DNA of 64,000 bases from Acidimicrobiales bacterium (GTDB lineage Bacteria > Actinomycetota > Acidimicrobiia > Acidimicrobiales > Bog-793): positions 14,510 to 78,509 of the forward strand of contig JBEKMZ010000003.1 in the NCBI GenBank assembly GCA_049523315.1, read 5' to 3'. Positions 24,118 through 44,321 of this stretch are shown in pieces. A program made the position numbers and the translations under genes. Every line of letters begins with the position of its first letter. The stretch's first letter is position 1. The notes beneath the pieces were generated by a model. The model saw only the letters and a list, made by a program, of their open reading frames with translations. It was not told where the DNA came from and made no database searches.

Positions 24118-25878
24118 TTACCGGCGGCTGCCGGCGTCCCCGGCCAAGCTGCGTAGCGCCGCCACCAGCAGATCGACCTCGACGTAGGTGTTGTACATCG
24201 CCAGAGAGGGCCGCACGGCCGACTCGAGGCCGTAGCGGCGGAGTATCGGCTGGGCGCAGTGGTGACCGGCCCGGACAGCTATCGCTTCCTGGTCCAGCGC
24301 CGAGCCGACCTCCTCGGGGCGGTAGCCCTCCAGTACGAAGGTGAGGACACTGGCTTTCTCAGGCGCCGTGCCGATGAGGCGAAGGCCGGGAACACTGCGG
24401 ATCTCTGCCATCGCGTAATGGAGCAGGTCGTGCTCGTAGCGCTCGATGATCGGCCGCCCGAGGCGGTCCAGGTACTCGAGCGCAGCCCCGAGGCCGACGG
24501 CACCGGCGATGTTGCCCGTGCCCGCCTCGAATTTGGCTGGTGGACGCTGGTACAGCGTCCGCTCGAAAGTAACGTCGGAGATCATGTTCCCGCCGCCCTG
24601 CCACGGCGGCATCTCCTCGAGAAGCTCCGCTTTGGCATACAACGCCCCGATGCCGGTGGGGGCGAAGATCTTGTGCCCAGAGAACACGTAGAAGTCGGCG
24701 TCCATCGCCTGGACGTCGACGACCATATGGGCCACTGCTTGCGCCCCGTCCACGAGCACCTTGGCCCCGACGCGGTGAGCCGTCTCGATCATCTCTTTGA
24801 CCGGAACGATCGTGCCGAGGACGTTGGAGACCTGGGCGATCGCGACGAGCTTGGTCCGCTCGCTCAGCAGGTCGCCGTAGGCGCCGAGGAGCAGGCTACC
24901 CTCCTCGTCGACGGGGATGACCTTCAGCTTGGCTCCGGTCTCGGCGGCGAGCTGCTGCCAGGGGACGATGTTGGCGTGGTGCTCGAGGTGCGAGACCACG
25001 ATCTCGTCTTCCCTGCCGATGTGCCGGCGTCCCCAGGACTGCGCCACCAGGTTGATCGCCTCGGTCGTGCCGCGCGTGAACACGACCTCTTCGGCCGATG
25101 GCGCGCCGAGAAATTTCGCCACCGTGGAGCGAGCCCCCTCGTAGGCGTCCGAGGATCGCGCCGCGAGGCTGTGAGCCGAGCGGTGGATATTCGAGTTCTC
25201 GTGCGAGTAGAAGTACGCCAGGCGGTCGATGACCACCTGCGGCTTTTGAGTCGTGGCCCCGTTGTCCAGCCAGACCAGCTGGCGCCCGTGGATACGCTCT
25301 GTCAACACCGGGAAGTCGCGACGTACCGCCTCTACATCGAAGGCCGGGTAGGCGTCCACCCGCCCTACCATGCGCGGGTCGCAGGCCGGTGTCCGGGCGG
25401 GACTGGCCTTGCGCTCCTCGATGAAATAGAACGACGGCGCACCAGCCGGGCTGGAACCGAGCACGGGCTTTGAGCGCTCTAGCTGGCCCGAGCCCTCGAT
25501 GCCCGCGATTGCTGCCGCCGCCGCAGCCGACAACCCCGGGATGGAACCAGCTGCGGGCTGAGCCGCAAGCGACGCCAGCCTCGCCGGAGCGGCTGCGGCC
25601 CTGTGGAAGCTCGACAACGCGTCGGGTGGTTGGTAGCCGGGCAGGTCGACCGCCCGGCGATAATCGGACACCACGGCCGTTGAGGCGTGAACGGCCGGAT
25701 CCGCGGCCTTATCTGGCGCGGACTCTTTTCCCGGCTGATCTGCCGGGGCTGCGGCGTCCGGCTTGTGCCCCGGCGTCGAGGCGAAGAACTCGCTCGCGAT
25801 CCTTGTCAGGGTCGCCTCGTCCGGCACCCAGTCTGGAACGGTGCCCGCGCCGTCACCGGTAGGAGTGCGAGTACTCAT
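24118..25878 (-). CDS. Class V aminotransferase-fold cysteine desulfurase (SufS/CsdA-like) with ~180-aa disordered N-terminal encapsulin cargo-loading domain
   Basis: The ATG at 25878 overlaps the shell gene's 3' end by 26 nt. The Ala/Pro-rich N-terminus contains LTRIASEFF, cf. the conserved LARLANEFF-type motif of Family 2A cargo. The catalytic part carries SGHKIFAPTGIGALY (PLP Lys) and RAGHHCAQP (catalytic Cys). Confidence 0.9.
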   Translation of the reverse strand: MSTRTPTGDGAGTVPDWVPDEATLTRIASEFFASTPGHKPDAAAPADQPGKESAPDKAADPAVHASTAVVSDYRRAVDLPGYQPPDALSSFHRAAAAPARLASLAAQPAAGSIPGLSAAAAAAIAGIEGSGQLERSKPVLGSSPAGAPSFYFIEERKASPARTPACDPRMVGRVDAYPAFDVEAVRRDFPVLTERIHGRQLVWLDNGATTQKPQVVIDRLAYFYSHENSNIHRSAHSLAARSSDAYEGARSTVAKFLGAPSAEEVVFTRGTTEAINLVAQSWGRRHIGREDEIVVSHLEHHANIVPWQQLAAETGAKLKVIPVDEEGSLLLGAYGDLLSERTKLVAIAQVSNVLGTIVPVKEMIETAHRVGAKVLVDGAQAVAHMVVDVQAMDADFYVFSGHKIFAPTGIGALYAKAELLEEMPPWQGGGNMISDVTFERTLYQRPPAKFEAGTGNIAGAVGLGAALEYLDRLGRPIIERYEHDLLHYAMAEIRSVPGLRLIGTAPEKASVLTFVLEGYRPEEVGSALDQEAIAVRAGHHCAQPILRRYGLESAVRPSLAMYNTYVEVDLLVAALRSLAGDAGSRR

Positions 25879-26794
25879 GGAACTTGCCGATTTCGACGTC
25901 GTCGAGGACTGCAAGCGCGTCGGGAGTGAGGACGGCGAGCGAGTAATAGAGAGAGACGAGGTAGGACGCGATTGCGTTGCGGCTGATCCCCATGAATCGC
26001 ACTGAAAGCCCGGGTGACTGCTCGCCTGTGAGGCCTGGCTGGTAAAGGCCAATTACACCCTGGCGTCGCTCACCGACGCGCAGCAGGAGCACCTTGGTCT
26101 TGCCCTTGACGATCGGCACCTTGTCGGAGGGGACGATCGGAAGGCCGCGCCAAGTGATGAACTGCGAGCCGTGGATGCTCACGGTCGCTGGCGGGACTCC
26201 GCGGCGCGTGCACTCGCGACCGAAGGCGGCGACGGCGAGCGGGTGGGCCAGGAAGAAGGCCGGCTCCTTCCAGACCTTTGTGATGAGCTCGTCGAGATCG
26301 TCCGGCGTCGGCGGCCCCGTCAAGGTGGAGATGCGCTGGGATGCGTCAGCGGCGGAGAGCATTCCGTAGTCGGCATTGTTGATGAGCTCGCTCTCCTGGC
26401 GCTCCTTTACGGTCTCGATCGTCAGCCTGATCTGCTCCGCGATCTGGTCGAAAGGGCTGCTGTAGAGATCGGAGATGCGGGTGTGGATGTCGACGATCGT
26501 CGCCACGGTGCTGAGGAAGTACTCGCGCGGCGTCTCGTAGTAGCCGACGTAGGTCGTCGGCAGCTCCGACTCGTCTCGCGCCGGAGTGGCGACGGTGACC
26601 GAGCCAGGGTCCTTGACCCGGTTCAGACGGTAGATACCCGCCTCGACCGGCACCCACTGCAGCATGTGGACCAGCCATCGCGGAGTGATCGTGTCGAGCT
26701 GTGCGGTGCTCTTGGTGGCATTCGTGAGTTGGCGCGCGGCGTCGTCGGTCAGCGCGAGATTTGTCGGCTCTTCGTTGGTCACTGCTCTAGGCAT
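25853..26794 (-). CDS. Family 2A encapsulin shell protein (SrpI-like, HK97 fold, no cNMP domain)
   Basis: Strong recollected similarity along the whole length to SrpI-type shells: ITPRWLVHMLQWVPVEAGIYRLNRVKD, DIHTRISDLYSSPFDQI, ERQESELINN, KEPAFFLAHPLAVAAFGRECTRRGVPPATV and LLLRVGERRQGVIGLYQP. At 313 aa it is the 2A type. Confidence 0.9.
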   Translation of the reverse strand: MPRAVTNEEPTNLALTDDAARQLTNATKSTAQLDTITPRWLVHMLQWVPVEAGIYRLNRVKDPGSVTVATPARDESELPTTYVGYYETPREYFLSTVATIVDIHTRISDLYSSPFDQIAEQIRLTIETVKERQESELINNADYGMLSAADASQRISTLTGPPTPDDLDELITKVWKEPAFFLAHPLAVAAFGRECTRRGVPPATVSIHGSQFITWRGLPIVPSDKVPIVKGKTKVLLLRVGERRQGVIGLYQPGLTGEQSPGLSVRFMGISRNAIASYLVSLYYSLAVLTPDALAVLDDVEIGKFHEYSHSYR

Positions 26795-26879
26795 TGCTCA
26801 GCCCTTCCCTGATCGACTGCCCGAACGGCTCGGTTTCCGGGAGCGTCCGGGACGTCAGATCGCCTCTCGATGGTGGCTC

Positions 26880-26945
26880 ATTCGTCACTATTTTTATAAA
26901 CTTAGCTCACCGGTAATAGGGTCCAAGGTCACTAATTTGAGGTCG
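26880..26945 (-). promoter_or_regulatory. AT-rich promoter/operator island upstream of the encapsulin gene
   Basis: The only AT-rich patch in the 26795-26971 gap. GTCACTA(T/A)TT occurs twice (26884 and 26928), 44 nt apart, flanking TTTTTATAAACTTAG. Confidence 0.35.
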
Positions 26946-26971
26946 TCGAGCCCACTCGCGTTGCCGTCAGA

Positions 26972-27502
26972 TCAGATGAAGAGCTGGATATCGGCCTTCG
27001 CGGCCATGTCGATGAAGCTGGCCGCACCGAGTGTGGGCTGCAGACCGTCGATGAAATCGGACGTCGACAGCCCGTAGAGGTCCATCGTCATCTGGCAGGG
27101 GTGCAGGCGCACGCCCACGTCGATCGCCATCTCCATCAGCTCGGTCACGCTCGCGACCTTGTGCTGCTTGGCGAGCAACTTGATCATCGAGGTCCCCATC
27201 CCGGCGAAGTGCACCTTGCTCAACTTCAAGTGCTCGCTCCCGCCGCGGTCGAACAGGGACTCTCCCTTCTGCATCCAGTTGTTGCCCGTCACGCGCTTGT
27301 CGTTCTTCTGCAGTACCCGCAGGCCCCAGAAGGTAAAAAAGACGTCGACCTCGAGGCCGGACGCGGCCCCAGTGGTGGCGAGGATCATCACCGGCCACAC
27401 CCGGTCGAGGTCGTTGCTCCAGCAGATGATGGCCATCCGCTTCGGTTCCTCCTCCTCGGAAGCCTTGGTAGAAGCGCTCAATGATGTGTCGGTGCTGTCC
27501 AT
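26972..27502 (-). CDS. DsrE/DsrF-like (COG2210-type) sulfur-carrier family protein
   Basis: MAIICWSNDLDRVWPVMILATTGAASGLEVDVFFTFWGL... and the conserved Cys context RLHPCQMTMD. Acidic Ser/Glu-rich N-terminal tail. AT-rich gaps flank it on both sides. Confidence 0.8.
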   Translation of the reverse strand: MDSTDTSLSASTKASEEEEPKRMAIICWSNDLDRVWPVMILATTGAASGLEVDVFFTFWGLRVLQKNDKRVTGNNWMQKGESLFDRGGSEHLKLSKVHFAGMGTSMIKLLAKQHKVASVTELMEMAIDVGVRLHPCQMTMDLYGLSTSDFIDGLQPTLGAASFIDMAAKADIQLFI

Positions 27503-27589
27503 GTCGGATCTCCTGACTCGGCGACGATGCCCTGGTCAGTTTGCCCCGCGTAGGGTGCTGCGATTAGGGCTGGTGAACGGGATCGGCGA

Positions 27590-27640
27590 TATCCAAATAC
27601 TACTTTCCAGCTAGATTACATAGTTAATACCTAGAGACCA
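27590..27640. promoter_or_regulatory. AT-rich island between lbpA and the dsrE-like gene (promoter/operator candidate)
   Basis: AAATACTACTTTCCAGCTAGATTACATAGTTAATACCTAG was read directly. It contains GATTAC-N5-TAATAC, similar to a motif upstream of cysK. Confidence 0.3.
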
Positions 27641-27701
27641 CGAGTTCCATGGTGGGATCGCCCTTCACAGAGCACACGCGGAGCCTCGGGAGCTCGTTCG
27701 A

Positions 27702-28136
27702 CTATCCGCACGTGATGCCCTCGGCGTCGAGGAACTGGCGGTACGCCTCGATACCCTCAGGCCCGGTGACGAGGTCGGCCGCATCGCCTGCCCAGTCGGA
27801 TGGACGTAGCCGCGCGACCCAGCCGGCCCCGTAGGGGTCCGAGTTCACGAGGCTCGGCGAGGCGAGAAGGGCATCGTTCACCTCGACGATCTCGCCGCTT
27901 ATGGGCGCCGTGACAGGGCCCACCCATTTGCCGCTCTCCACGGTGGCGATGTTCCGGCCCTTTTGGACGAGCTTGCCAGCCGCCTTCGGCGTAACGGCCA
28001 CGATCGTCTTTGCGAGGCTCTGGGCAACGTCGGTCATGCCGACCGTGACGAGTTCCCCGTCACGGCGGGCCCAGACGTGCCTTCCCACTATGTAGTACAG
28101 CTCCTCGGGAAGGTTGCACTTGTTGACGACGGTCAT
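27702..28136 (-). CDS. GcvH-like lipoate-binding protein (LbpA type)
   Basis: ATG at 28136. The glycine-cleavage-H fold pattern is VGMTDVAQSL...ATVESGKWVGPVTAPISGEIVEVN...DPYGAGW, with the lipoyl-Lys in VESGKW. Confidence 0.85.
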   Translation of the reverse strand: MTVVNKCNLPEELYYIVGRHVWARRDGELVTVGMTDVAQSLAKTIVAVTPKAAGKLVQKGRNIATVESGKWVGPVTAPISGEIVEVNDALLASPSLVNSDPYGAGWVARLRPSDWAGDAADLVTGPEGIEAYRQFLDAEGITCG

Positions 28137-28191
28137 GTTCTCTCCTTCAGCGCGACTTGCGGGCCGACGTGTCTCTCGCGTCTTCGCCGCA

Positions 28192-30354
28192 TCACACTGT
28201 GACCCCGACACTGGGCGGCCCGACCGGCCGATAGAGTGCCTCCCCGATGAGCGAGACGATGTCGCGCACGGCGATCCGGTTCTCGGCGCGGGTCGTCTTG
28301 ACCGCCTCGGAGAACATGACCAGGTCCTTGGGGCAGGCCACGACGAATCGTCCCACGTCCAAAGAAAGGGCCTCCTTTATCCGTATCTCACTCGGGCGCT
28401 CGGAGAGGTAGCTGTCGTCCATCCAGATTCGCCCTCCACCTGCGCCGCAACAGAACGTGTCCGTGCGGTTGCGGGGCAGCTCGACGAGCTCGCAGCCGAG
28501 TGACTGCAGGATCCGGCGAGGGGCGTCGACCACGCCGTTGTAGCGCGCCAGGTAGCACGGGTCGTGATAGGTGACCCGATACCCGAGCGGCCGCACCGCG
28601 ATCTCACCGGTCTCCAACAGGCTCGCGAGCAGCTCGGTGTAGTGCCGGACCGGGTAACTAGCCCCGAGCGACGGGTACTCGTTGCGAAACGCGTTGAGTG
28701 TGTGCGGGTCGGTCGTGAAGATCTCCTCGAAATGGGCCCCGGCCAGGGCCTCGAGGTTCTGCTGGGCGAGCATCTCGAACAAACCTTCCTCGCCGACGCG
28801 CCGGACATCGTTGCCCGAATTGCGCTCCGCCTCGTAGAGGAGGCCGAAGTTGACCCCGGCATCGTGCAGGATCCTCGCCAGGAGACGGCTGGTCTCGCCC
28901 AGCCGCTCGTCGAAGCTGGCGTAGTCGCCCACGAACCACAGATACCTCACGGGCTGCTTTCGGACATCGGGGATCTGGAACTCAAGCTCACGCGTCCAGC
29001 GTCCACGTGTCCGGGCCGACTTCCCGAAGGAATTCCCCTGCGCGGCCAGGTTCTGCAGCGCCTGTTGCAAGGTGTGGTCGAGATTCCCCTCGTTGACCAG
29101 GCTCCGTCGCAGCTGGATGATCGTGGGCACCTGTTCCACCCCGACAGGGCAGACGTCCACGCAGTGCATGCACGTCGTGCAAGACCACAAAGCCCCGGCC
29201 TCGATCACCTCGCCGGCGATCCTTACGCCCTTGGCGGGCGAGAGCGGACCACTGCGCTGCGGCCTTTGCTCGCGATCGAGCAGGGTCGTCCCTCCGGCCG
29301 AGGTGTCAACCCACTGGCGCAGGTCGAGGATCAGGTCGCGCGGCGACAGTGGCGCCCCGCCGGCACGTGCCGGGCAGACGTCGTGGCAGCGGCCACACTT
29401 CGTGCACGCGTCGAGGTCCAAGAGCTCTTTCCAGGTGAAGTCCGAAATCTCCTCGTAGCCGGGGTGCTTCGGTGCTGGCGCAGCCAGCCGGAGCGTCGCC
29501 GAACGGTCCGTCGCGACCAGGTTCACCCCGTCGAGCAGCATGTGCATCGCCTTGGAGTACGGGACATAAGCGACAAAACTCAGCGCGAGCACGACGTGGA
29601 TCCACCACATGACGGTGTGGGCCCTTATCGCCTGCGCGGACGTCATGCCAAGGCCGGAGAATATCTCCGCGACCGACCGGCCGAAGGGGCTGAACACCGT
29701 GAACCAGGCCATGTGCTGGCCGAGAATGCGCAGTCCAGTCAACAGGTAGGCAGTCACGAGGATGGCCCCGAGCAGCCCCAGGAACATCCAGTCGCCCTCG
29801 ACCATGGCTCTTCTCGAATAGCCGCCCGTGGGCGTGCCTGCCCGGTCGTAGGACAGCCGCTCTGGCTTGAGCATGCCCCTGCGCACCGCCATATAAGCCA
29901 GGGCGACGAGGAACGCGAAGCCCATGGTGTCGACAGCGAAGGTGTAGACGATGAAGAACGTGCCGTGGAAGAAACTGTCCTCGTGCCCGGCGACCAAGCG
30001 TGAAGCTGTCCGGACGACGTCGGTGTCGACCGTGAGGATCACCGTCGCCATGAAAGCGACGAGGAACCCCCAGAGCATGAAAAAGTGCGCGACGCCGGTG
30101 CCCCGGTTCGCTCTCGTGACCGTCGTGCCCTTGGCGATCGAGCGCAGTCGGCTGGCGAGCGCCGCCCGGATCGTCGGTCCTCGACCCGCCGCCCGGCCGA
30201 GCCTGTACTTGCGCACGCGCCGCCAGACACCCCATGCGAACACCGCCGTCGACAGCGTCGCCAGGCAGTAGAAGATCGCCTTGCCCACAGATCCGATTCC
30301 CTCGAACAAGGGCCGGCTCACGTCGGTCGCCAGCAGACCGAGCGAGCCTGTCAC
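28192..30354 (-). CDS. Membrane-bound HdrD/DsrMK-like Fe-S oxidoreductase, ETF:(mena)quinone oxidoreductase type (Emo / EtfD-like)
   Basis: N-terminal ~300 aa with 5-6 TM helices (NarI/DsrM-like). Two ferredoxin Cys clusters (CTKCGRCHDVCP, CTTCMHCVDVCP) and two CCG domains (HDPCYLARY, FCCGAGGG). Starts 2 nt after etfA. Confidence 0.85.
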   Translation of the reverse strand: MTGSLGLLATDVSRPLFEGIGSVGKAIFYCLATLSTAVFAWGVWRRVRKYRLGRAAGRGPTIRAALASRLRSIAKGTTVTRANRGTGVAHFFMLWGFLVAFMATVILTVDTDVVRTASRLVAGHEDSFFHGTFFIVYTFAVDTMGFAFLVALAYMAVRRGMLKPERLSYDRAGTPTGGYSRRAMVEGDWMFLGLLGAILVTAYLLTGLRILGQHMAWFTVFSPFGRSVAEIFSGLGMTSAQAIRAHTVMWWIHVVLALSFVAYVPYSKAMHMLLDGVNLVATDRSATLRLAAPAPKHPGYEEISDFTWKELLDLDACTKCGRCHDVCPARAGGAPLSPRDLILDLRQWVDTSAGGTTLLDREQRPQRSGPLSPAKGVRIAGEVIEAGALWSCTTCMHCVDVCPVGVEQVPTIIQLRRSLVNEGNLDHTLQQALQNLAAQGNSFGKSARTRGRWTRELEFQIPDVRKQPVRYLWFVGDYASFDERLGETSRLLARILHDAGVNFGLLYEAERNSGNDVRRVGEEGLFEMLAQQNLEALAGAHFEEIFTTDPHTLNAFRNEYPSLGASYPVRHYTELLASLLETGEIAVRPLGYRVTYHDPCYLARYNGVVDAPRRILQSLGCELVELPRNRTDTFCCGAGGGRIWMDDSYLSERPSEIRIKEALSLDVGRFVVACPKDLVMFSEAVKTTRAENRIAVRDIVSLIGEALYRPVGPPSVGVTV

Positions 30355-30356
30355 GC

Positions 30357-31319
30357 TCAGCCCCTGATCCGGTCCACGAGCTCGGGGACGAGATCGAACA
30401 GGTCGACGGATGTCCCGTAGTGGGCGACACCGAAAATTGGGGCCGCGGGATCGGTGTTGCAGGCGATGATCAGCTCCGCGCTACGCATGCCTTCGAGGTG
30501 TTCCGGGGCTCCCGAGATCCCGAGAGCGAGGTAAACCCTCGGCTTAACCTTCACGCCCGACTGCCCCACGTGGCGAGTCTTCGGCAGCCACCCCGCGTCC
30601 ACCACAGGGCGCGAAGCCGAGAGCGGGACGCCGAGGGCATCCGCGAGCTCGAGCACGATCTCGAGGTTGTCCTGCGACTCGATGCCTCGTCCTACCGAGA
30701 CGAGCATCTCGGCCGAGGTGATGTCCACATCTCCCTCAGTCGCTTCGATCACCCGGCGTAGTGACATCCGCAGGGTATCGAGGCCGGGCGATGGAGCTAG
30801 CCCCATGAACTCTGTCGTGACTGCCTTCGGGTCGGTCGATGTGGCGCAGGCGCCGCCCATGACGGTGGCGATCACGCGCTCGCCCGCAAGTTCGACGTCG
30901 GCGAGAACCTTCCCGCCCAGCATCTGTGCAGTGGCCACGATGGCACCGTCTTCGACCCAGAGATCACTCACGTAAGCCGCCAACGACGCATTCCAGTGCA
31001 CCGCGAGCGCCGCCCCGAGATCCAGGCCCACGGTCGCGTTCGACATGAGCAAGAGACGCGGGGACCGCTCTGCCAGCACCTCCAAGAGCTCGTGCTCGTA
31101 AGCCTCCGGGATGTACTGCGACAAGACAGGGTGTTCGACGCAGACCACGACGTCGGCACCGCCGAGTTGATCGGCGAGCTCTCGCGCTCCGAGCAGCACG
31201 ACCTCGGTCGTCCCACCGAGCGCCAATGCGAGCTCACGCGCCTTGCCGATGAGCTCGTAGGTCCCGTCGGAGACTTGCGCTCCCGTGTGCTCGGCGAGAA
31301 CCATGACGTTGTCGCTCAC
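30357..31319 (-). CDS. etfA: Electron transfer flavoprotein alpha subunit
   Basis: C-terminal FAD-binding signature PRVYLALGISGAPEHLEGMRSAELIIACNTDPAAPIF. Confidence 0.9.
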   Translation of the reverse strand: MSDNVMVLAEHTGAQVSDGTYELIGKARELALALGGTTEVVLLGARELADQLGGADVVVCVEHPVLSQYIPEAYEHELLEVLAERSPRLLLMSNATVGLDLGAALAVHWNASLAAYVSDLWVEDGAIVATAQMLGGKVLADVELAGERVIATVMGGACATSTDPKAVTTEFMGLAPSPGLDTLRMSLRRVIEATEGDVDITSAEMLVSVGRGIESQDNLEIVLELADALGVPLSASRPVVDAGWLPKTRHVGQSGVKVKPRVYLALGISGAPEHLEGMRSAELIIACNTDPAAPIFGVAHYGTSVDLFDLVPELVDRIRG

Positions 31320-31326
31320 TTGATGG

Positions 31327-32118
31327 TCACCCTTTCACCAGGCCACGTGTGCGAAGCATTCCCACGATCTGCTCGGCCACTTCCCCGGCACTGCCGGCGA
31401 GCATCTCGGCCTGACCCGTCCTCTCGGGTAGGTGCAAGCGGCGCACGAGCACCTCGGTTCCCGCCGATGCCACTGGTGAGACGGCCCTCTCCTCGATGGA
31501 GCCGGACTGCATGGCCTGTTTGATCCGACTGATCGGGGCGTAGCGCGGGACCTGGCGAGCGGACTGGACACCGATCACTGCAGGCATCTGCACCTCCAGC
31601 TCGTGTGACCGCCCGGCCGCGAACTCCTGTCGGACAATTATCGAGCCGCCCTCGGCCTCGATGCTCACGACCACCGACACGTGTGGGAGGCCAACGAGCG
31701 CGGCCAGCCTGGAGGGCAGCTGGCCGTCGGGGTCGTCACAGGCCTGCACGCCGGTGATCACCAGGTCGGCCGGCTCGGTCGCCAGGTATCCCGCCAGAAG
31801 GCGTGCCCGCTCGGACAGTTTGATTCCCGCTCGGAGCGGTTCTTTCCCGCTCGCGTCGGCGAGCTTGACCGCCGTGTCCGCTCCCTTGGCGAGCGCGGTG
31901 TAGAGGATCTGGTCGACCTCGGGGTCCGCGGCCATTCCGAGCGCGACCACCTCGGCCCCGTTCGCGTCCTTGATCAGCAGGGCCTCTTCGAGAGCCTGCG
32001 CGTCCCACTCGTTGACCACGAAGCTCAGATACTCCCGGTCGATCCCGGCCCCGTCCGCGGTTAGCTCGATCTCCTCCACGAGATCTGGCACCGCCTTCAT
32101 AGGCACCACGATTCGCAC
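31327..32118 (-). CDS. etfB: Electron transfer flavoprotein beta subunit
   Basis: MRIVVPMKAVPDLVEEIEL...NEWDAQALEEALLIKD is typical of EtfB/FixA. Confidence 0.9.
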   Translation of the reverse strand: MRIVVPMKAVPDLVEEIELTADGAGIDREYLSFVVNEWDAQALEEALLIKDANGAEVVALGMAADPEVDQILYTALAKGADTAVKLADASGKEPLRAGIKLSERARLLAGYLATEPADLVITGVQACDDPDGQLPSRLAALVGLPHVSVVVSIEAEGGSIIVRQEFAAGRSHELEVQMPAVIGVQSARQVPRYAPISRIKQAMQSGSIEERAVSPVASAGTEVLVRRLHLPERTGQAEMLAGSAGEVAEQIVGMLRTRGLVKG

Positions 32119-32119
32119 C

Positions 32120-36850: not shown

Positions 36851-38150
36851 CCTGCGTGCCCCCGCCCATCGCCTCGTCGACGAGCTCTATGACATCGCAC
36901 ACCCTGAGCTCCTCGTGACCGGTCGCCTTTGCTGCATCGCTGAAACGCGAGACCTCATAAGGACAGCAGACCGCCAGCACATCGGCGCCGGTCTGAGCAG
37001 CCTCGCGGACCCTGCGCTCGGAGAGCCTCTCGGTCGTGTGGTCCCGCGTGAAACCGTCCAACCACATGCCGCCGCCCCCCCCTCCGCAGCAATAAGCGTT
37101 CTCCCGGCAGCGGCTCATCTCGACCAGCTCCAGACCCGGAATCGCCTCCAACAAGGCCCGGGGGGCGTCGTACTCGCCGTTCTGCCTGCCCAGGTAGCAG
37201 GGATCGTGGAACGTCACCTTCGCTCTCAGCTCCCTCGCCCATCGGATATGGCCGACGAGCGGAGCGAGGAGCTGTGTGTAATGCAGCGCGGCAAATTCGT
37301 GGCCGCGCCTAGGGTACTCGTTGACGAAGGCGTTAAAAGCGTGGGGATCGGGTGTCACGATCCGCTCGAACTGGTATTTCGACAGCACCGCCGCCACATC
37401 TTCGACCAACGCGTCGAACAAGCCCCTCTCCCCGGCGAGCCGTTGCGAGTCCCCGAGCGTCTTCTCCTCCGGACCGAGGATCGCCCAGTCGAGACCAAGG
37501 GCGGAGGCCACTCTGGCGAATGCTCGGGCGGCGTCCTGGCCACGGGGGTGGAAGCTCCAATAGTCCTCCACATAGAAAAGGACATCCACGGGCCCTGGCT
37601 GTTTGCCGAGGATCCTCACCGGGACGCCGGCGCTGTCTGCCCATTGTGCCCTACGTCGCTGGTTCTGGCCGAGCGCATTGCCGTGCCGGAAGGTCTTCTC
37701 CAAGACGTCTTGCAGTTCGCCGGGCACCTGCGTGCCGGCCAAGGCGGCCTCGCGCATGGCCGGCATGATCGAGATCATGTCGACCGCCTTGGGACAGACC
37801 CGCAGGCAGTTCCCGCAGGTGGTGCACAGCCAGAGGTCGGCGTCGGCCAACAGCTCGGTGCCGGTCTGGACCTTGCGGTGGATCTTGCGCGGGCCATAGT
37901 CCCCCACCATGTCGACCGGGCAGACCGCGTCGCACTTGCCACAGCCGAAGCACCACTCCAGGGACTCTCCGCCCGAGAGGGCTGAGATCGAGGCGAAACC
38001 GTCCGGGCCATAATCGGTGAGAACTCGAGGCTCGAACATCCGGTTCCACATCCCCGGCAGGTCCACCTCGCGTCCGGAAAGTGTCGATGCGACCGTCACC
38101 TGCTCTTTCTCCAGCGCCACGGGCGGGACCTTCCGGCCACTTACGGGCAC
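36843..38150 (-). CDS. Soluble HdrD-like protein (HdrC-type 2x[4Fe-4S] fused to HdrB-type CCG domains; sHdrB3-like)
   Basis: CFGCGKCDAVCP and CTTCGNCLRVCP, then HDPCYLGRQ and YCCGGGGGG. No TM segment. Its core is clearly paralogous to the C-terminal part of the membrane protein at 28192..30354. Confidence 0.8.
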   Translation of the reverse strand: MPVSGRKVPPVALEKEQVTVASTLSGREVDLPGMWNRMFEPRVLTDYGPDGFASISALSGGESLEWCFGCGKCDAVCPVDMVGDYGPRKIHRKVQTGTELLADADLWLCTTCGNCLRVCPKAVDMISIMPAMREAALAGTQVPGELQDVLEKTFRHGNALGQNQRRRAQWADSAGVPVRILGKQPGPVDVLFYVEDYWSFHPRGQDAARAFARVASALGLDWAILGPEEKTLGDSQRLAGERGLFDALVEDVAAVLSKYQFERIVTPDPHAFNAFVNEYPRRGHEFAALHYTQLLAPLVGHIRWARELRAKVTFHDPCYLGRQNGEYDAPRALLEAIPGLELVEMSRCRENAYCCGGGGGGMWLDGFTRDHTTERLSERRVREAAQTGADVLAVCCPYEVSRFSDAAKATGHEELRVCDVIELVDEAMGGGTQDG

Positions 38151-38153
38151 GGC

Positions 38154-38906
38154 CTAGGCCTCCGGCCCTTGAACGCCGAGCAGGCGGCGGACGATGTCGG
38201 GCAGCGACGGGATGACCCGGGTGAACTCGCGGGTCACACGCATCTGCAGGATCGTGTGCATGTACACCCCGTACACAACGGCCATGAGGACATCCATCCC
38301 GAACAAGCCAGCACCAGCGACGGAGAACCCGGCCGCCCTACAGGTCTCCTCGGCAAAGGCCGTCGCCCGACCGACGCTCATGTAGACCGCACCCCTCGTG
38401 GCTCCCGGGCTGCGCTCGAGTTCACAGTTGGTCAAAAGGCCTAGCGCCCCGGTTCCCGCGCCAGGGTCCCAGATCCACCTGGTCCATAACCAGTAACGCG
38501 CGGGCTGGGTGAAGTGCAGCAGCTCTGCTGGGAGATCGATCCCGGCGCCTGATAGCTCGCCTATTGAGCCGTCACCGCCGAGCGTGGCGTCGAAAAGGTC
38601 GATCCGCTCCGCCACCGGCGCGCCTGCATCGAGGAGCCGAGCGATCGCCCCTGCAAGTCGCTCGGGTCCGACAGCATCGACGATCCGGTCCGCGCGCCTT
38701 CGAGTTGCGAATACCCAACGCAGCACTTCGCGCAGCTCGGCGCGATCGAGCTGCGACGGGTCGTCTGACAAGAGCCCGCGAAGCGAAGCGGCCTTGCGCT
38801 GCAGGCCGGCAGTGATCACCAGCAGGTCGCTCTCGCCGATTCGGTCCATCGCCTCGCGTTGGAGATCCAGCGCGGTCGGGCTGGCGACAACGGGACCGGT
38901 GACCAC
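38154..38906 (-). CDS. Conserved hypothetical protein in the sHdrH position
   Basis: 250-aa soluble ORF between the hdrA-like and HdrD-like genes, which is where shdr clusters carry 'hyp/sHdrH'. I have no motif I can name, so the assignment is positional only. Confidence 0.5.
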   Translation of the reverse strand: MVTGPVVASPTALDLQREAMDRIGESDLLVITAGLQRKAASLRGLLSDDPSQLDRAELREVLRWVFATRRRADRIVDAVGPERLAGAIARLLDAGAPVAERIDLFDATLGGDGSIGELSGAGIDLPAELLHFTQPARYWLWTRWIWDPGAGTGALGLLTNCELERSPGATRGAVYMSVGRATAFAEETCRAAGFSVAGAGLFGMDVLMAVVYGVYMHTILQMRVTREFTRVIPSLPDIVRRLLGVQGPEA

Positions 38907-38918
38907 GAGATCGTCGCC

Positions 38919-40013
38919 TCAGCTCGTCGCCGCGACTGCGCGCGAGCGTAGGTAGCCGAGGGCCCTGACTGCGGCACCGGCCGCAGACGAGACGGTGTCC
39001 TCGAGATCGGCCGGGCCGAGCGCCGCCCCGCAGGCAAAGATCCCTTCGCGATCGGTGCTGACCGGGTCGAGCGGCGCGCCGACCGCTTCGATGAACCCAT
39101 ACCGGTTCTGTTTAACCCCGAGCAGTCCCGAGAGCTCGCGTGTCCCGGGAGACGGCTCCATACCGACCGACAGCACTACGAGGTCCATCAGAACCTCCAT
39201 CGGCCGCCCCATCGTGGTGTCCTCGCCCCGCACAAGCAAGCGATCACCTCGCGGCAGCACCTCGGTGATCAGGCCCTTCACGTACTGGACATGGTGCTGT
39301 TCTTGTGCCGGCCAGTAGATCTCGTTCTCCCAGTACCCGTACATGCGCATGTCGATGTAGAAGATGAGCACCTTCGACTCGGGCAGCAGCTCACGGATCT
39401 CGATGGCCTCTTTAGAGGCCACGCCGCAGCAGACCTTGGAGCAGTACTCGTTGCCGATCTGACGGTCACGACTGCCGACGCACTGGACGAAGCAAATCCG
39501 CTCCGGCATCTGGCCGTTGGAGGGACGTAGGACCCGGCCCTGCGAGAGCATCGCCTCGAGATCAGCCTGAGTGATGACGTCGGGGAACTCGTAGTAGCCG
39601 TACATCTGCGGCGAGCGCCCCGGGTCGAAGTGGCCGAACCCGGTGGCGATGATTATCGCTCCGCACTCAATTCGCTCCGCGCCTGGCACAGCTTCGCCGA
39701 CCCGGCCGTCGATCGACGACGAGCGCAAGCCCAGGGTGAACGCCCCCGGCTCCCGCGTCAGTTCTGCAAGCTCGGTGGCGACGCGGACCTCGATGAGCGG
39801 GCTGGAGGTGACCTCGTTGATCATCCGGAGGATCTGAGGCTGGGCGGGTTCACCGCGTGGCGTAAGTCCGCAGTAGTTCTCCGCGACCGGGGTCCCACCG
39901 AGGAACTCGCGTCGCTCTATCAGCACCACCCTTCCGCCCATCTCTGCGATGCAGTTCGCCGCACGCAGACCGCCTGGTCCCCCACCGATGACCACAACCG
40001 TGTCAGAGGACAT
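38919..40013 (-). CDS. HdrA-like FAD-dependent oxidoreductase (sHdrA)
   Basis: FAD fingerprint VVVIGGGPGGLRAA and the HdrA Cys motif CFVQCVGSRD...YCSKVCC. Confidence 0.85.
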   Translation of the reverse strand: MSSDTVVVIGGGPGGLRAANCIAEMGGRVVLIERREFLGGTPVAENYCGLTPRGEPAQPQILRMINEVTSSPLIEVRVATELAELTREPGAFTLGLRSSSIDGRVGEAVPGAERIECGAIIIATGFGHFDPGRSPQMYGYYEFPDVITQADLEAMLSQGRVLRPSNGQMPERICFVQCVGSRDRQIGNEYCSKVCCGVASKEAIEIRELLPESKVLIFYIDMRMYGYWENEIYWPAQEQHHVQYVKGLITEVLPRGDRLLVRGEDTTMGRPMEVLMDLVVLSVGMEPSPGTRELSGLLGVKQNRYGFIEAVGAPLDPVSTDREGIFACGAALGPADLEDTVSSAAGAAVRALGYLRSRAVAATS

Positions 40014-40021
40014 CTCTCACC

Positions 40022-41278
40022 TCAATCGTCGTGCTCGAACCTGGCATCGGATACCTGATGGGCGCTCTTGTCATGCTCACCATCCGCGTCGTCCCAGTCG
40101 AGATACTGCTTCTCGCCTGTCTCTAGCCGACGCAGGTCGCTCTGGAACTCCGCCCAGGCGCGTTCCCAATCGATGCCCATCTTCTCTAGCAGCGGCCGGT
40201 AGTCGGCCGAGTGCCAATGCAGTTGGCAAACGCGGTAAGGATGAGCGCCCATAGCCAAGGCGGCGAACTGCGCGTCACTGAGCACGGCGAGCCCGACGTT
40301 GCGCTCGTGCGCCTGCGCCGCGAACTGACTCTTGTCCAGGGTGGTCACGCACCCGGTGTCGTGAGTCAGCACGACGTCGGGGTTCGCCTCCTGTTTCATG
40401 ACCTCGATCTTGCGCAGCGTGGCAAAGGACCTCGTGAAGTCTCGCTGCACCAAGATGTGCCTGAAGCCGAAGCCGCAGCAATCGAACCAGGTCGAGTAAT
40501 CGCGCACCTCGGCACCAAGCGTCTCCGCCAGGGCAGTTACCACGGCGGTGCGTTGGCCCCCGTAGAAATCCTCGTCGTAGATCGCGTCGGCCGAGACGAT
40601 CTTGTAGTAGTGGCAGGCGGGATGGACTGTCACGACAATTCCCGACATGTCGCGGACCTGCTTTGCAGCGATCTCGTCACGCAGGGCGTGGAACCACTCC
40701 GAATAATGGACGATCTCCTCCGGCACCACGAGCGGCTTGCCGAGCTTGGCCATGATCTCGCGGACTTGAGCCCGTAGCTCCGGGTGCCGTATGAGCTGTT
40801 CCCGCACTTCTTTGTAGTGCCCGTACGACGTGCCGCAGTGGATGAGCGGGAAATAGCCCGTCTCGTAGGCCGCGGCGAAATTGCGCACGGCAACAGCAGC
40901 CTGGGCAGCAGTGTTGGAGGTGGCGCTCGCGTAGTAGTTCCAAGCCGTACAAGAGGTTTGGTCGTGCGGGTCGTGGTAGTCGTAGCCGAGCTTGCGCATC
41001 ACCCAAAAAATGGACGTGGAATAACCAGGGATGTGGCCACACTGACCGCAGGACTTGTGGTGCCACAGGTGTGCCTTTTGGATCCTCTTCACGCGCCCGT
41101 ATTTCGTCACCACCTCGATCGCTTCCTGATCGATCCTCTGCACTATCAGCTCGCCCTGACGCTCCAGCTCGAGCAGCTCGGTGCGCGGATCCTCGAGCGA
41201 CCGCCGGTCCGGAACCGTCTCGGCAGCTGGCTTGACGCGCCTACGGGCGTCGATCGGAGCCGCTATGGGAACTGTCAC
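40022..41278 (-). CDS. HdrB-like CCG-domain protein (sHdrB1)
   Basis: The GTG at 41278 overlaps the hdrC1 stop (GTGA). Cys-rich CCG-type segments: HHKSCGQCGH, TSCTAWNYY, FDCCGFGFRH, HDTGCVTT. The longer 484-aa ORF is an over-extension into hdrC1. Confidence 0.8.
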   Translation of the reverse strand: MTVPIAAPIDARRRVKPAAETVPDRRSLEDPRTELLELERQGELIVQRIDQEAIEVVTKYGRVKRIQKAHLWHHKSCGQCGHIPGYSTSIFWVMRKLGYDYHDPHDQTSCTAWNYYASATSNTAAQAAVAVRNFAAAYETGYFPLIHCGTSYGHYKEVREQLIRHPELRAQVREIMAKLGKPLVVPEEIVHYSEWFHALRDEIAAKQVRDMSGIVVTVHPACHYYKIVSADAIYDEDFYGGQRTAVVTALAETLGAEVRDYSTWFDCCGFGFRHILVQRDFTRSFATLRKIEVMKQEANPDVVLTHDTGCVTTLDKSQFAAQAHERNVGLAVLSDAQFAALAMGAHPYRVCQLHWHSADYRPLLEKMGIDWERAWAEFQSDLRRLETGEKQYLDWDDADGEHDKSAHQVSDARFEHDD

Positions 41279-42009
41279 AGCTCGATACCTTCTTCCTCGA
41301 GGCGCTCCTCCATCAGCTCTTGCAGGATCGAGTGCAAGCCGCTGTCGATTCCCGCGATCATCTCCAGGGCACCGGTTTCGAACCAGATGACGTAGAGCTC
41401 GAGCAGGGTCTTGTCTGCCACGGACCAGCCAGCCGATGTCGTGTGCATGGTCTCTGGAGGCAGCGCCCGGCGCCACAGGTCCAGGTTGTCCGCCACATCA
41501 CCCGTCTCGGGTCCCCAGTCCGGGAACGCCTCCGGTCGCAGCATGTCTGGCGAGACCTGCGTCCCGGTCGACATGATCTTGTAGATGATCCGCGAGTAAC
41601 CGACGAGCGCCGCCTTCGCCGAGGCGAGCCCGTTGTTCACGGCCACCTCCCGCATGATCGTGATGATCCCCCCGGGGTTATTGCCTCGCGGGCAGCGCAG
41701 ACACGAGAAGCACTGGGAGCACTCCCAGATGTCTTCCTGCATCTGCTGGTAGACGAGCTCCACGTCTTCACGTGCGGCAGCCTGCGCGACCCGGCGCGGG
41801 CTGAAGTCGTAGAACTTGGCCGACGGACAGGCGGCGACGCAAATGCCGCACTCATAACAGCCGTACAGGTAATCGGCGAAGCGGAGGTCGCCTTTCACCT
41901 GCTCGAACAGCTTCGCCTTGGTCTCGTACGGCACTTCGGTGTAGCCGGCGACTTCTGGGGCCTTGTAATAAGGGTCCGTCTTGGCCTGGGTGGCGGCTGT
42001 GACGGTCAT
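41275..42009 (-). CDS. HdrC-like 4Fe-4S dicluster protein (sHdrC1)
   Basis: CYECGICVAACP and CSQCFSCLRCPRGNNP ferredoxin motifs. Confidence 0.8.
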   Translation of the reverse strand: MTVTAATQAKTDPYYKAPEVAGYTEVPYETKAKLFEQVKGDLRFADYLYGCYECGICVAACPSAKFYDFSPRRVAQAAAREDVELVYQQMQEDIWECSQCFSCLRCPRGNNPGGIITIMREVAVNNGLASAKAALVGYSRIIYKIMSTGTQVSPDMLRPEAFPDWGPETGDVADNLDLWRRALPPETMHTTSAGWSVADKTLLELYVIWFETGALEMIAGIDSGLHSILQELMEERLEEEGIEL

Positions 42010-42017
42010 CGCGGTGC

Positions 42018-42401
42018 CTAAAAGCTGATCACGGCGTCAGCGGTGGCCGCGAGGTCGTTGAAGGCTGCGCCCCCGATCACCTCGACCCCATCGATCAGGT
42101 CGTTGAGGCGCAGATCGTTCAAGTCGAGTGAGGGCTGGCAGACCAAGAGCCGGACGCCGAGCCCGGTGGCCTGTTCGATGAAGTATCGCAAGGGCTGGCC
42201 CTGGTCGCCCTTCGGCCCGATCTTGTCGACAACGTCCTTTCGAAGCAGGGTAGGCCCGTACATCGTGAAATAGATCATGACCTCGAACTCCATCGCCGCC
42301 GCGGAGGCCGCGAGGAAAAATGGAGTCGCGCTCCGGCCCGGGTCGTCCGCTCCATGGGTCTGGACGTAAAGGATCTTTGTCTCAGAGTCTTCGGCCCACA
42401 T
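42018..42401 (-). CDS. DsrE family sulfurtransferase (DsrE3-like)
   Basis: 127 aa. DsrE fold pattern KILYVQTHG...EVMIYFTMYG...RLLVCQPSLD, with the active-site Cys in VCQ. Confidence 0.8.
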   Translation of the reverse strand: MWAEDSETKILYVQTHGADDPGRSATPFFLAASAAAMEFEVMIYFTMYGPTLLRKDVVDKIGPKGDQGQPLRYFIEQATGLGVRLLVCQPSLDLNDLRLNDLIDGVEVIGGAAFNDLAATADAVISF

Positions 42402-42410
42402 GAATGCTTC

Positions 42411-42659
42411 CTACTTCACTCGGCGGATGAGGACGTGGAAGACGTCCGCCTGCTTGGTGATGCCGAGAAGCTCATTGCCGGTGCGGCTGGCCCAGGCCCG
42501 CATGTCAGGCTCGACCCCCGCATCGGTGGCGAGTAGCTCGAGAACCTGCCCGGGGGCGAGATTCTTGATCGCCTGGGCGGTCTTCACGACCGGCAGCGGA
42601 CATGCCAACCCGACGCAGTCAAGCACCTGGTCTGCGGCTGGAGTCGCGGACTCGGGCAC
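42411..42659 (-). CDS. tusA: TusA-family sulfur carrier
   Basis: LDCVGLACPLPVVKT (the CPxP motif). The GTG at 42659 is preceded by AGGAGG 6-11 nt upstream. The longer ORF overlaps cysE and is not needed. Confidence 0.85.
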   Translation of the reverse strand: MPESATPAADQVLDCVGLACPLPVVKTAQAIKNLAPGQVLELLATDAGVEPDMRAWASRTGNELLGITKQADVFHVLIRRVK

Positions 42660-42678
42660 AACATCCTCCTTTTGAGTT

Positions 42679-43380
42679 TCAGATCGAGAAGTCTTCGCCG
42701 GACCAGACTCCGGCTTTGGACGGACGAACGTCATGACGATCCCGGTGGCCGTCGACCAGCATCTCCAGCTCGTCGACACGCGCCAGAAGCGACTGGAGGC
42801 TGGAGCCGAGGAGGTCGGGCATGAATGCCGACTCGAGATCGGGCCGGTCCGTGGCCCGATGAGGGCGGCTCCGGGCGATGATCTGACCGGGCACACCGAC
42901 TACGACCGAGTTCGCGGGAACAGACTTCACGACGACGGCATTGGCGCCGATGCGGCTGTCGTCACCGATTGTGATGGGCCCGAGGACCTTGGCCCCAGCG
43001 CCGATCGTCACACGGTTCCCCACCGTCGGGTGACGCTTCACCCGGTCGAGGCTCGTGCCGCCAAGGGTGACGCCCTGGTAGATGGTGACATCGTCACCCA
43101 CCTCAGCCGTCTCGCCGATGACCACACCACTAGCATGGTCGATGAACACACCCTGGCCGAGGATGGCTGCGGGGTGGATCTCGACCCCGGTCAGCCATCG
43201 TGCCAGCGCGGCAGCTGCACGCGCGACGAGCTTGAAGTCTTTCCGCCACAACGAATGACAGATTCTGTGGCTCCAGAGTGCGTGCACGCCCGAGTAGCAG
43301 ATCGCGATCTCGAGCGAGGAGCGCGCGGCGGGGTCACGGTCGCGCGCTGAGATCAGATCGCGCCGCAGGGTGGAGAGCAT
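42679..43380 (-). CDS. cysE: Serine O-acetyltransferase
   Basis: SATase N-terminal helices ([25 protein letters not shown]) and hexapeptide repeats ([32 protein letters not shown]). Confidence 0.92.
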
Positions 43381-43382
43381 GC

Positions 43383-44321
43383 TCAGTCGGTGAGACCCTC
43401 GAACAGCGCCGTCGAGAGGTAGCGCTCACCGAAAGACGGGACGATCACGACGACCAGCTTGCCCGCGTTGTTTGGACGCGCGGCCACCTGCAGTGCCGCC
43501 CAGATCGCCGCGCCGGACGAGATGCCGACCAGCAGGCCCTCATCGCGCGCCGCATGCCGCGCGATGTCGAATGCATCCGCGTTCTCGACGGTAATGATCT
43601 CGTCGACGACGTCAGTGTCCAAGATCCCGGGAACGAAGCCTGCCCCGATGCCCTGTATCGGATGAGGCCCCTTCTGACCCCCTGAAAGGACCGGCGAGGA
43701 CGCAGGCTCGACGGCCACCATCCTTACCGCCGGCTTGCGGGCCTTTAGTACCTGACCGACACCGGTGATCGTCCCACCCGTGCCGACGCCGCAGACGACG
43801 ATGTCAACCTCGCCATCGGTGTCGCCCCATATCTCCTCCGCGGTCGTGGCGCGGTGGATCGCGGGGTTCGCCGGATTCTCGAACTGCTGTGGGACGAAGT
43901 ACCGCAGGTCGCTCTTGGCCAACTCCTCAGCCTTGGCGATCGCGCCGGGCATGCCCTCCGGCCCCGGCGTCAGGATCAGCTCCGCTCCGTAGGCGCGCAG
44001 CAATGCCCGGCGCTCCTTGCTCATCGTCTCGGGCATCGTGAAGACGCACCGGTAGCCGCGCGCAGCGCACACCATCGCCAGTGCGATCCCGGTGTTCCCG
44101 CTTGTCGGCTCGAGGATGATCGTTTCCGGCCCGATGAGACCCGCCTGCTCGGCTGCGTCGATCATCGCTACCCCGATGCGGTCCTTGACGCTGTGAGCCG
44201 GGTTGAAAAACTCCAGCTTGGCAACGACCTGCGCACCGCCGTCCCTGGGCAGGTGACGCAGCCGGACGAGGGGCGTGTTCCCTATGAGCTGGGTGATGTC
44301 GTCCGCGATCTTCATGGTCAC
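43383..44321 (-). CDS. cysK: Cysteine synthase A (O-acetylserine sulfhydrylase)
   Basis: PLVRL..., [11 protein letters not shown] (PLP Lys), [18 protein letters not shown]. Confidence 0.95.

Follow-up and report, generated by a model that had tools for sequence, protein, structure and literature searches.

Do the encapsulin genes and the sulfur-oxidation genes that stand side by side in an Acidimicrobiales bacterium form one genetic unit, and might sulfur pass from the one to the other? The question is raised by a 64,000-nucleotide (nt) stretch of its DNA, hereafter the window (contig JBEKMZ010000003.1, positions 14,510-78,509 of the forward strand; assembly GCA_049523315.1), in which 21 consecutive co-directional open reading frames (ORFs) occupy the minus strand from 24118 to 44321 and make up two known modules. 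The original prediction had listed them as a series from cysK (44321) to a cysteine desulfurase gene (24118), and its coordinates and every annotation were confirmed by domain searches. The locus is a composite of a type II sHdr-LbpA sulfur-oxidation cluster and a Family 2A cysteine-desulfurase encapsulin operon: the sHdr set (26972-42653) is bracketed by cysK-cysE on one side and by the genes for the encapsulin shell (enc) and its cargo cysteine desulfurase (CyD) on the other. The arrangement is more than chance, as 12 further loci share the layout.

A composite of two known sulfur modules

Genes were labelled by Pfam and NCBIfam profile searches with curated cut-offs and, for sHdrA and the shell, by PDB matches. 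In the order of the gene string they are as follows.

43383-44321 (-): cysK, O-acetylserine sulfhydrylase, at the head of the long operon; PALP E 1.3e-75; TIGR01139 461 bits, cut-off 351
42679-43380 (-): cysE, serine O-acetyltransferase (AT); hexapeptide; TIGR01172 238 bits, cut-off 211
42411-42653 (-): tusA, sulfur carrier; PF01206 E 2.3e-22; CPLP cysteine motif in the translation
42018-42401 (-): DsrE-family sulfur transferase, 127 aa, in the DsrE3A position; PF02635 and PF13686
41275-42009 (-): shdrC1; Fer4 dicluster ferredoxin, distant HdrC match
40022-41278 (-): shdrB1; CCG domain, distant HdrB match
38919-40013 (-): shdrA, 364-aa flavoprotein; Pyr_redox_2, distant HdrA match; PDB 6TJR
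38154-38906 (-): shdrH ("hyp"), 250 aa; no domain match
36843-38150 (-): shdrB3, 435-aa soluble fused HdrC2/HdrB2-like protein; Fer4 dicluster and one CCG domain
35822-36850 (-): sLpl-like; LplA-B_cat
35358-35822 (-): lbpA1; GCV_H
34381-35361 (-): lipS1; Radical_SAM; LipS1 model 223 bits, cut-off 230
33320-34384 (-): second sLpl-like; LplA-B_cat
32120-33226 (-): lipS2; Radical_SAM; LipS2 model 190 bits, cut-off 270
31327-32118 (-): etfB; ETF domain
30357-31319 (-): etfA; ETF and ETF_alpha domains
28192-30354 (-): emo, 720-aa membrane Fer4+CCG protein; 5 predicted transmembrane segments in the first 270 residues
27702-28136 (-): lbpA2, second lipoate-binding protein; GCV_H E 2.5e-33; ESGKW lysine motif in the translation
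26972-27502 (-): dsrE2-like sulfur carrier; full-length PF13686 E 9e-45; NF047629 (DsrE2) 107 bits, below cut-off
25853-26794 (-): enc, Family 2A encapsulin shell (SrpI type), 313 aa; PF19307 E 9e-104; NF041162 510 bits, cut-off 380
24118-25878 (-): CyD, cargo cysteine desulfurase; Aminotran_5 at residues 202-571; NF041166 830 bits, cut-off 800

Type II clusters are one of two sHdr-type clusters; they comprise shdrC1B1AH-B3, etfAB and emo, the last encoding an ETF:(methyl)menaquinone oxidoreductase (EMO), and usually include TusA and DsrE3A, with sHdrB3, an HdrC2-HdrB2 fusion, as their marker (PMC11094781, Tanabe et al. 2024). They occur in 130 GTDB assemblies, mainly of Chloroflexota, Actinobacteriota and Bacillota (PMC11094781). 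The window holds shdrC1B1AH, shdrB3 and etfAB in one syntenic cluster, by which that study defines the type, and a membrane-anchored Fer4+CCG protein adjoining etfAB, the feature of EMO. Gene set and order are those of the published clusters, including sHdrB3, EtfAB, EMO and a lipoate module of LbpA-, sLpl- and LipS1/S2-like proteins, and 26972-42653 is a standard, complete type II sHdr-LbpA cluster. Two genes that had been labelled soluble and membrane "hdrD-like" are real, but they are properly the sHdrB3 and EMO genes of this described cluster (PMC11094781). Among solved structures, the window sHdrA matched that of Hyphomicrobium denitrificans sHdrA best, over its full length (6TJR; E 1.5e-80). 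That the carriers belong to the TusA and DsrE families was confirmed, with NF047629 scoring below its cut-off; LipS1 lies just below and LipS2 somewhat below the curated cut-off, and the GCV_H domains and lipoyl-lysine motif are present. The window cluster differs from published type II clusters in being headed by cysK-cysE and followed by enc-CyD at its end (PMC11094781), and from sister type II clusters in lacking ArsR-type regulator genes and in having one copy of lbpA2 before dsrE2, where the sisters have two paralogues. The dsrE2-like gene adjoins the desulfurase module; it belongs to the sHdr set, because it is also present in the enc-less sister clusters examined.

More than 1,400 Family 2A desulfurase-encapsulin operons fall into four types, R-AT-Enc-CD, AT-Enc-CD, R-Enc-CD and Enc-CD, in which CD is the cysteine desulfurase, AT (cysE) is a standard accessory gene and R encodes a rhodanese that has been suggested to accept the sulfur outside the shell (PMC8346489, PMC10836720). 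The shell accumulates crystalline elemental sulfur, S0 (PMC10836720). As in the operons of S. elongatus SrpI and A. baumannii 118362 (R-AT-Enc-CD), shell and cargo pass the curated Family 2A models and the cargo N-terminus is long: CyD carries a P/A/S/G-rich extension of ~200 aa, its disorder being judged from composition alone. A phmmer search of the PDB with the shell returned the Family 2A shells of Acinetobacter and Synechococcus (8T6R, E 7e-152; 6X8M, E 2.5e-142). The shell is a single Pfam domain to which the 2B model aligns only at its C-terminal shell part (model 212-449); because it is without the cNMP-binding (cyclic nucleotide) insertion, it is 2A and not 2B. Look-up returned no exact record of its protein sequence.

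We then compared the position of cysE with that in 65 other Family 2A loci (non-Acidimicrobiales loci with enough upstream sequence, out of 74). In 43 of the 65 it immediately precedes enc in the same orientation, and in 6 more it is divergent; cysK is nearby in 22, and the window cysK is 78-81% identical to enc-adjacent cysK of other Actinomycetota loci. As cysE is the usual upstream partner of enc, a single known operon has here been parted into cysK-cysE and enc-CyD. The view that cysK-cysE had been recruited as a step to re-make cysteine is therefore not upheld, the pair being inherited encapsulin operon content (cysE in 43/65 loci, cysK in 22/65). In the window cysE and cysK remain in the same gene string as enc, as in most relatives, but cysE is 16 kb upstream of it: unlike in other Family 2A operons, ~16 kb of sulfur-oxidation genes separate AT from Enc. 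Domain searches found no rhodanese among the cluster genes, and TusA and two DsrE-family carriers stand in its place. This arrangement is absent from the four published operon types (PMC10836720).

The string is tightly packed in DNA of 62-71% G+C. Genes overlap by 4 nt at 41275-41278, 35358-35361 and 34381-34384 and by 8 nt at 36843-36850; cysK and cysE are separated by 2 nt, and cysE and tusA by 25 nt. The overlaps and the 2-nt gap, noted earlier, follow from the ORF coordinates. Of the claim that only two breaks interrupt the string, both named gaps (27503-27701 and 26795-26971) are real, but there is a third, of 93 nt, at 33227-33319. The start of lbpA2 is ambiguous (28136 or 28211), and start codon analysis places that of CyD most likely at the ATG at 25878, giving a 26-nt overlap with enc.

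Both modules were already known. In the literature library that we searched, we found no paper that relevantly links encapsulins with sHdr, DsrE, TusA, LbpA, heterodisulfide reductase or sulfur oxidation, and the words "encapsulin" and "cysteine desulfurase" are absent from the text of PMC11094781. This agrees with the earlier statement that no description of the two systems as one unit was known, and the arrangement is missing from the four operon types and from published type II descriptions alike.

Conservation and single origin of the fusion

To relate the window to other genomes, we used a shell-centred scan of GTDB species representatives (80 loci, screened with all window proteins), a LipS1-centred scan of JGI metagenomes (80 more loci) and LipS1-homologue look-ups, which added L164, L165 and L166. 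The fusion was present in 13 loci, with protein identities to the window of 59-98%: the window itself, four other GTDB species (L003-L006), five metagenome contigs (L082, L083, L087, L126, L156) and the further assemblies L164-L166. L003-L006 have the same order (sLpl ... emo-lbpA2-dsrE2-enc-CyD) at 64-92% protein identity to the window; the full cysK-cysE-tusA ... dsrE2-enc-CyD string is found in L082, L087 and L126, and enc-CyD follows dsrE2 in L083 and L156. In L165, an IS110-family transposase gene (17976-19067) has come to lie between lbpA2 and dsrE2; the dsrE2-enc adjacency is kept and the cluster is otherwise intact. L166 is divergent and compact, and the gaps flanking its dsrE2, of 54 nt and, on the enc side, 61 nt, would allow one transcript to span them. 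Outside the cluster, gene order is common to the window, L003 and L004, but not to L005, L082 and L166, and because the flanks differ in these three the link has outlived flank changes. These data indicate that the two systems are one conserved genetic neighbourhood, as had been predicted, which survives altered flanks and an insertion sequence.

The prediction that the linkage would be conserved in relatives holds within limits. It is not unique to one genome, being found in 13 loci. Six of the 80 loci of the shell-centred scan belong to Acidimicrobiales; in the remaining 74 Family 2A loci, from other Actinomycetota, Proteobacteria and further groups, no sHdr-cluster gene lay within 10 kb of enc. 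The lone carrier-type match among these 74 was a 32%-identical TusA-like ORF 6.5 kb from enc in L056.

A neighbour-joining tree was built from concatenated LipS1, sLpl, LipS2, EtfB and EMO (34 clusters, 2,130 columns). All clusters with enc, a CyD remnant, a SufS-like gene or upstream cysK/cysE formed one clade of 24, which split from 10 sister clusters with a bootstrap of 100/100. Since each of the major subclades contains enc, the fusion dates back to the ancestor of the clade, and since none of the 74 other Family 2A loci has nearby sHdr genes, its origin is single. The comparison made here thus shows a fusion that arose once, in the ancestor of one Acidimicrobiales clade, and was then conserved vertically. 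The shell tree, in which Acidimicrobiales shells are monophyletic, L005 and L006 are basal and L001 and L002 are nested among sHdr-linked shells, agrees with a vertical co-inheritance of both modules.

Some descendants carry one module only. L001 and L002 have cysK-enc-CyD and no sHdr genes; a cysE stump (residues 5-82) runs into the enc upstream region. Conversely, L093, L162 and L163 have kept sHdr, and dsrE2 is followed by a frameshifted CyD fragment (residues 401-572). These scars confirm secondary loss of either module by deletion. That L001 and L002 might represent the state before insertion was ruled out by the cysE stump and by the nesting of their enc in the sHdr-linked clade; they are deletion derivatives. 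L166 and one subclade are without cysK-cysE upstream of tusA.

Other observations were made on these loci. In L001, a single-domain rhodanese gene (650-1069, minus strand) lies ~1 kb upstream of cysK on the opposite strand and recalls the canonical Family 2A rhodanese. In L166, a PALP-family gene, possibly cysK, is convergent right after CyD (20787-21008, minus strand) and not upstream of tusA. The products of a 2-kb JGI contig, L098 (Ga0187862_10099175, 1-2022), are 100% identical to the sLpl-lbpA1-lipS1 products of the window, and that metagenome therefore includes the same organism. Its nearest relatives among genomes are metagenome-assembled ones from peat and bog (SPRUCE, bog_793, Microflora Danica).

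Free desulfurases and loss of ArsR-type genes

Three shell-less members of the clade (L103, L108 and L085) have an orthologous free SufS-family desulfurase gene adjoining dsrE2. The products (475-481 aa; 246-269 bits with the sufS subfamily model) are without the N-terminal loading domain and are 68-85% identical to each other and 32% to the cargo CyD. In L103 and L108, where cysE still precedes tusA, the gene is convergent downstream of dsrE2; L085 has it divergent upstream of dsrE2, and dsrE2 itself has moved in front of tusA. The partner that recurs with this sHdr cluster is thus a cysteine desulfurase, be it shelled or free, and the gene at which they recurrently meet is that of the DsrE2-like carrier.

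The control of the sHdr genes is a second point at which the clade stands apart. In Hyphomicrobium, shdr genes are controlled by the ArsR-type sulfane-sulfur-responsive repressors sHdrR and SoxR (PMC12423496). The sister clusters with sequence upstream of tusA carry such genes there: one or two ArsR-type regulator genes, in tandem, lie within ~1.5 kb upstream of tusA in L084, L161, L091, L153, L104, L143 and L149, and a homologue lies elsewhere in the locus in L124, L128 and L130. None was found in any member of the clade or in the whole window, where the sHdr genes sit behind the putative cysK promoter region. The clade has thus lost the ArsR-type genes, and the fusion coincided with a change in sHdr gene control.

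The seven sister clusters with ArsR-type genes upstream of tusA also have a small Cys-rich gene before tusA, which, like their pair of lbpA2 paralogues, was not seen in the enc-linked clade. L161 has genes for a Rieske protein downstream and an NrfD/Fer4_11 (Psr-like) protein upstream, neither of them seen in the enc-linked clade, and its etfA (14083-15056) is split into two gene calls (189 and 135 aa), a sign of either a frameshift or faulty assembly.

Upstream regions and putative regulators

Three conserved AT-rich boxes stand out in the GC-rich DNA, upstream of cysK, dsrE2 and enc.

44322-44400 (-): cysK upstream region; box at ~44361-44397, GATGCAATACATGATTACGATAGAAATAC, conserved in six relatives including L001 and L002
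27503-27701 (-): dsrE2 upstream region; box at 27611-27623, AT-rich CTATGTAATCTAG, then a TAGnAT hexamer
26795-26971 (-): enc upstream region; box at ~26878-26930, GACCTTGGACCCTA ... ATAGTGnnGAATG

The box upstream of cysK is a probable operon promoter or operator. That of dsrE2 is conserved in 13 of 14 aligned relatives, and 27503-27701 is the probable dsrE2 promoter region; that of enc is conserved in the window, L004, L126 and L156, a different conserved proximal block being present in other relatives, and 26795-26971 is the probable enc promoter region. The three boxes look like three promoters. CTATGTAATCTAG has one exact site in the window and, with up to 3 mismatches, 6 matches against 2.1 expected. 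A GTAATC hexamer that the boxes of cysK and dsrE2 have in common was picked out post hoc, was not significant and was set aside. Scans of the gaps and of the cysK upstream region for consensus promoters and terminators gave nothing above shuffled expectation, and the Rfam scan of the window returned no riboswitch or other RNA element in the cluster.

An Rrf2-family regulator gene (20707-21162, plus strand) lies 3 kb beyond CyD and has 97-99% identity to its counterparts in L003 and L004; among specific models, CymR comes nearest, with a score below the cut-off. L005 has a different Rrf2 gene (12686-13141; 44% identity) directly after CyD on the same strand. The Rrf2 gene may be a regulator of the locus. 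Next to it in the window is a gene for a coiled-coil-like protein of 163 aa (20090-20581, plus strand); with 91-99% identity in L003 and L004, the two are much better conserved than the genes of the cluster. At the other end, cysK is separated from a divergent CHASE-GGDEF-EAL gene (45008-47599) by an unusually long intergenic region (44322-45007, 686 nt) with no Rfam hit; the last ~80 nt next to cysK alone are conserved in relatives.

Proposed coupling of the desulfurase to sulfur oxidation

The locus joins two open questions. How shell-stored S0 is remobilised and what physiological role it has were left open when a dedicated external sulfur acceptor was proposed (PMC10836720), and so was the sulfur source of type II sHdr in non-lithotrophic Actinobacteria (PMC11094781). 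In the best model, which we hold at a probability of roughly 0.45, the two modules would be functionally coupled. CysE and CysK would make cysteine, possibly trapping sulfide; the encapsulated desulfurase would strip the cysteine of its sulfur and lay down persulfide/S0 in the shell; the DsrE2-like protein encoded beside enc, together with TusA and the DsrE3-type protein, would carry sulfane sulfur to sHdr, which would oxidise it to sulfite; and electrons would pass from lipoyl-LbpA to EtfAB, EMO and menaquinone. We infer every sulfur-transfer step, and the direction of flux, from the genes; the oxidation of sulfane sulfur to sulfite lacks a direct demonstration for any type II system (PMC11094781). 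The model draws support from the gene identities, from the bracketing of the sHdr set by the two operon halves with 25 nt between cysE and tusA, from the recurrence of the layout within one clade and the agreement of the shell tree, from the short gaps in L166, from the free desulfurases beside dsrE2 in L103, L108 and L085, from the loss of ArsR-type genes and from the external acceptor proposed for the shell.

The conserved fusion, the DsrE2-type carrier at the joint and the free desulfurase that replaces the shell module provide candidates both for the acceptor that the shell is missing and for the sulfur input of a type II sHdr system; CyD, the DsrE2-like protein, TusA and DsrE3 are clonable candidates at the locus for transfer assays. 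Relays from a cysteine desulfurase to TusA and similar carriers operate in biosynthesis, as in E. coli IscS-TusA and CsdA-CsdE. There too a pyridoxal-phosphate-dependent desulfurase is encoded beside a small cysteine-persulfide carrier; however, these relays feed tRNA thiolation or cofactor synthesis and not a respiratory oxidation complex, and they have no shell.

Several observations weigh against the coupled route. The linkage is missing from all 74 other Family 2A loci, and because the association arose once, its conservation could be inheritance without selection; each module survives alone in descendants, as L001, L002, L093, L162 and L163 attest. The dsrE2 and enc boxes are unlike each other and unlike the cysK box; no operator common to the three upstream regions was found, nor any CTATGTAATCTAG-like match upstream of cysK or enc. 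The cluster has no linked gene for the handling of sulfite. The S0 lies behind 6-Å pores, which puts carrier access in question. CD encapsulins were induced by sulfur starvation in the two organisms studied (PMC10836720), and such induction fits poorly with the burning of sulfur for energy. The weight of the finding is thus limited by the single origin, by the repeated loss of either half and by the uncultured state of the hosts.

An alternative is an inherited juxtaposition without coupling, in which one rearrangement put a sulfur-oxidation cluster in a sulfur-starvation storage operon, the order was then kept by descent, and each module works on its own, the one buffering sulfur for assimilation and the other serving the dissimilatory oxidation of sulfane sulfur from outside sources. 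A single origin with no linked locus elsewhere, independent deletion of each module without loss of the other, distinct dsrE2 and enc boxes without a shared operator, gaps around dsrE2 and enc of ~150-500 nt in most relatives and induction by sulfur limitation all agree with it, and the synteny that L003 and L004 keep beyond the cluster implies that some of the conservation is plain relatedness. We nevertheless consider this explanation doubtful, since cysK-cysE lies 25 nt upstream of tusA, so that this half of the encapsulin operon is probably co-transcribed with sHdr; since the link survives different flanks (L005, L082, L166), an insertion sequence (L165) and divergence to 59% identity; since the shell, where lost, is replaced by a free desulfurase beside dsrE2, in two arrangements; and since ArsR regulator genes were lost in the same clade.

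The replacement enzyme bears on another explanation, that the desulfurase supplies sulfur for the Fe-S clusters of sHdr, EMO and LipS1/LipS2 and for the lipoyl groups of LbpA, and not a substrate of sHdr. SufS-family enzymes are the usual Fe-S sulfur donors and lipoyl synthases consume cluster sulfur; the enzyme of L103, L108 and L085 is SufS-like, and the cluster encodes at least seven Fe-S proteins, along with two radical-SAM lipoyl synthases. However, sister type II clusters bear the same Fe-S and lipoate load and no desulfurase was detected within their fetched loci, no SufBCD, SufU, SufE or Nfu scaffold gene is present in the cluster or the window, and what stays beside the desulfurase is the gene of a sulfane-sulfur carrier of the DsrE2 type, not that of an Fe-S scaffold. 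A shell that amasses crystalline S0 would moreover be an odd device for cofactors, and we regard cofactor supply as unlikely.

Very unlikely is a coupling for assimilation, in which sHdr would reclaim stored S0 under sulfur limitation by way of sulfite and sulfide (through an assimilatory sulfite reductase) for re-fixation by CysK/CysE, with any energy gain incidental: starvation induction, the cysteine-synthesis genes at the head of the operon, the absence of sulfane-responsive ArsR regulator genes and the conserved Rrf2 gene 3 kb away (97-99% in L003 and L004; closest specific model CymR, below cut-off) speak for it, but the route is a six-electron detour where thiol reduction would do, no sulfite reductase is linked and the full electron-export branch (EtfAB, EMO) is retained.

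The coupled oxidative model can be carried further, to a "cysteine shunt" for dissimilatory sulfur oxidation, which is rather unlikely in this complete form. CysK would capture sulfide, or cysteine would be imported; the desulfurase would make S0 in the shell as an electron-donor reserve; the DsrE2-like and TusA carriers would dock on the shell and feed sHdr; and control would have been rewired from a sulfane-sensing ArsR repressor to cysteine status. A Gram-positive heterotroph would then have, in the shell, a protein-built equivalent of sulfur globules. Were this true, the Family 2A shell would have a part in bioenergetics, and the sulfur acceptor long sought for it would be identified. The host organisms are uncultured and abundant in peat and soil metagenomes, and because of this abundance a cysteine-to-sulfite route would matter for organic sulfur turnover in peat and soil.

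Flanking genes

A TauE gene at 4022-4882, which had been noted as a sulfite exporter operon 20 kb from the cluster, is real (E 5.6e-46), but it stands alone, next to a divergently oriented LysR regulator gene, and is not an operon. Its inclusion as a part of the system was rejected for lack of evidence: it lies 20 kb off behind housekeeping genes (recA, cinA, mur-ligase and uvrD genes stand between it and the cluster), and the fetched loci of relatives ended short of this region. No other sulfur gene was found in the window at 1-24 kb or 44-64 kb.

A 22nd co-directional gene (22510-24102, minus strand) starts within 15 nt of the CyD stop codon and encodes a polytopic membrane protein with ~10 transmembrane segments and no Pfam or NCBIfam family match; the protein was not found in L001, L002, L005 or L006, and is present at 59-63% identity in L003 and L004. 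Farther out, the window holds three tRNA genes (54846-54919, 55494-55567 and 55617-55690) and a cobalamin riboswitch (57928-58063, plus strand; 49.5 bits), downstream of which the genes at 60056-62781 (plus strand) include a CbiQ-like gene and one for a double-ATPase ECF/ABC transporter component.

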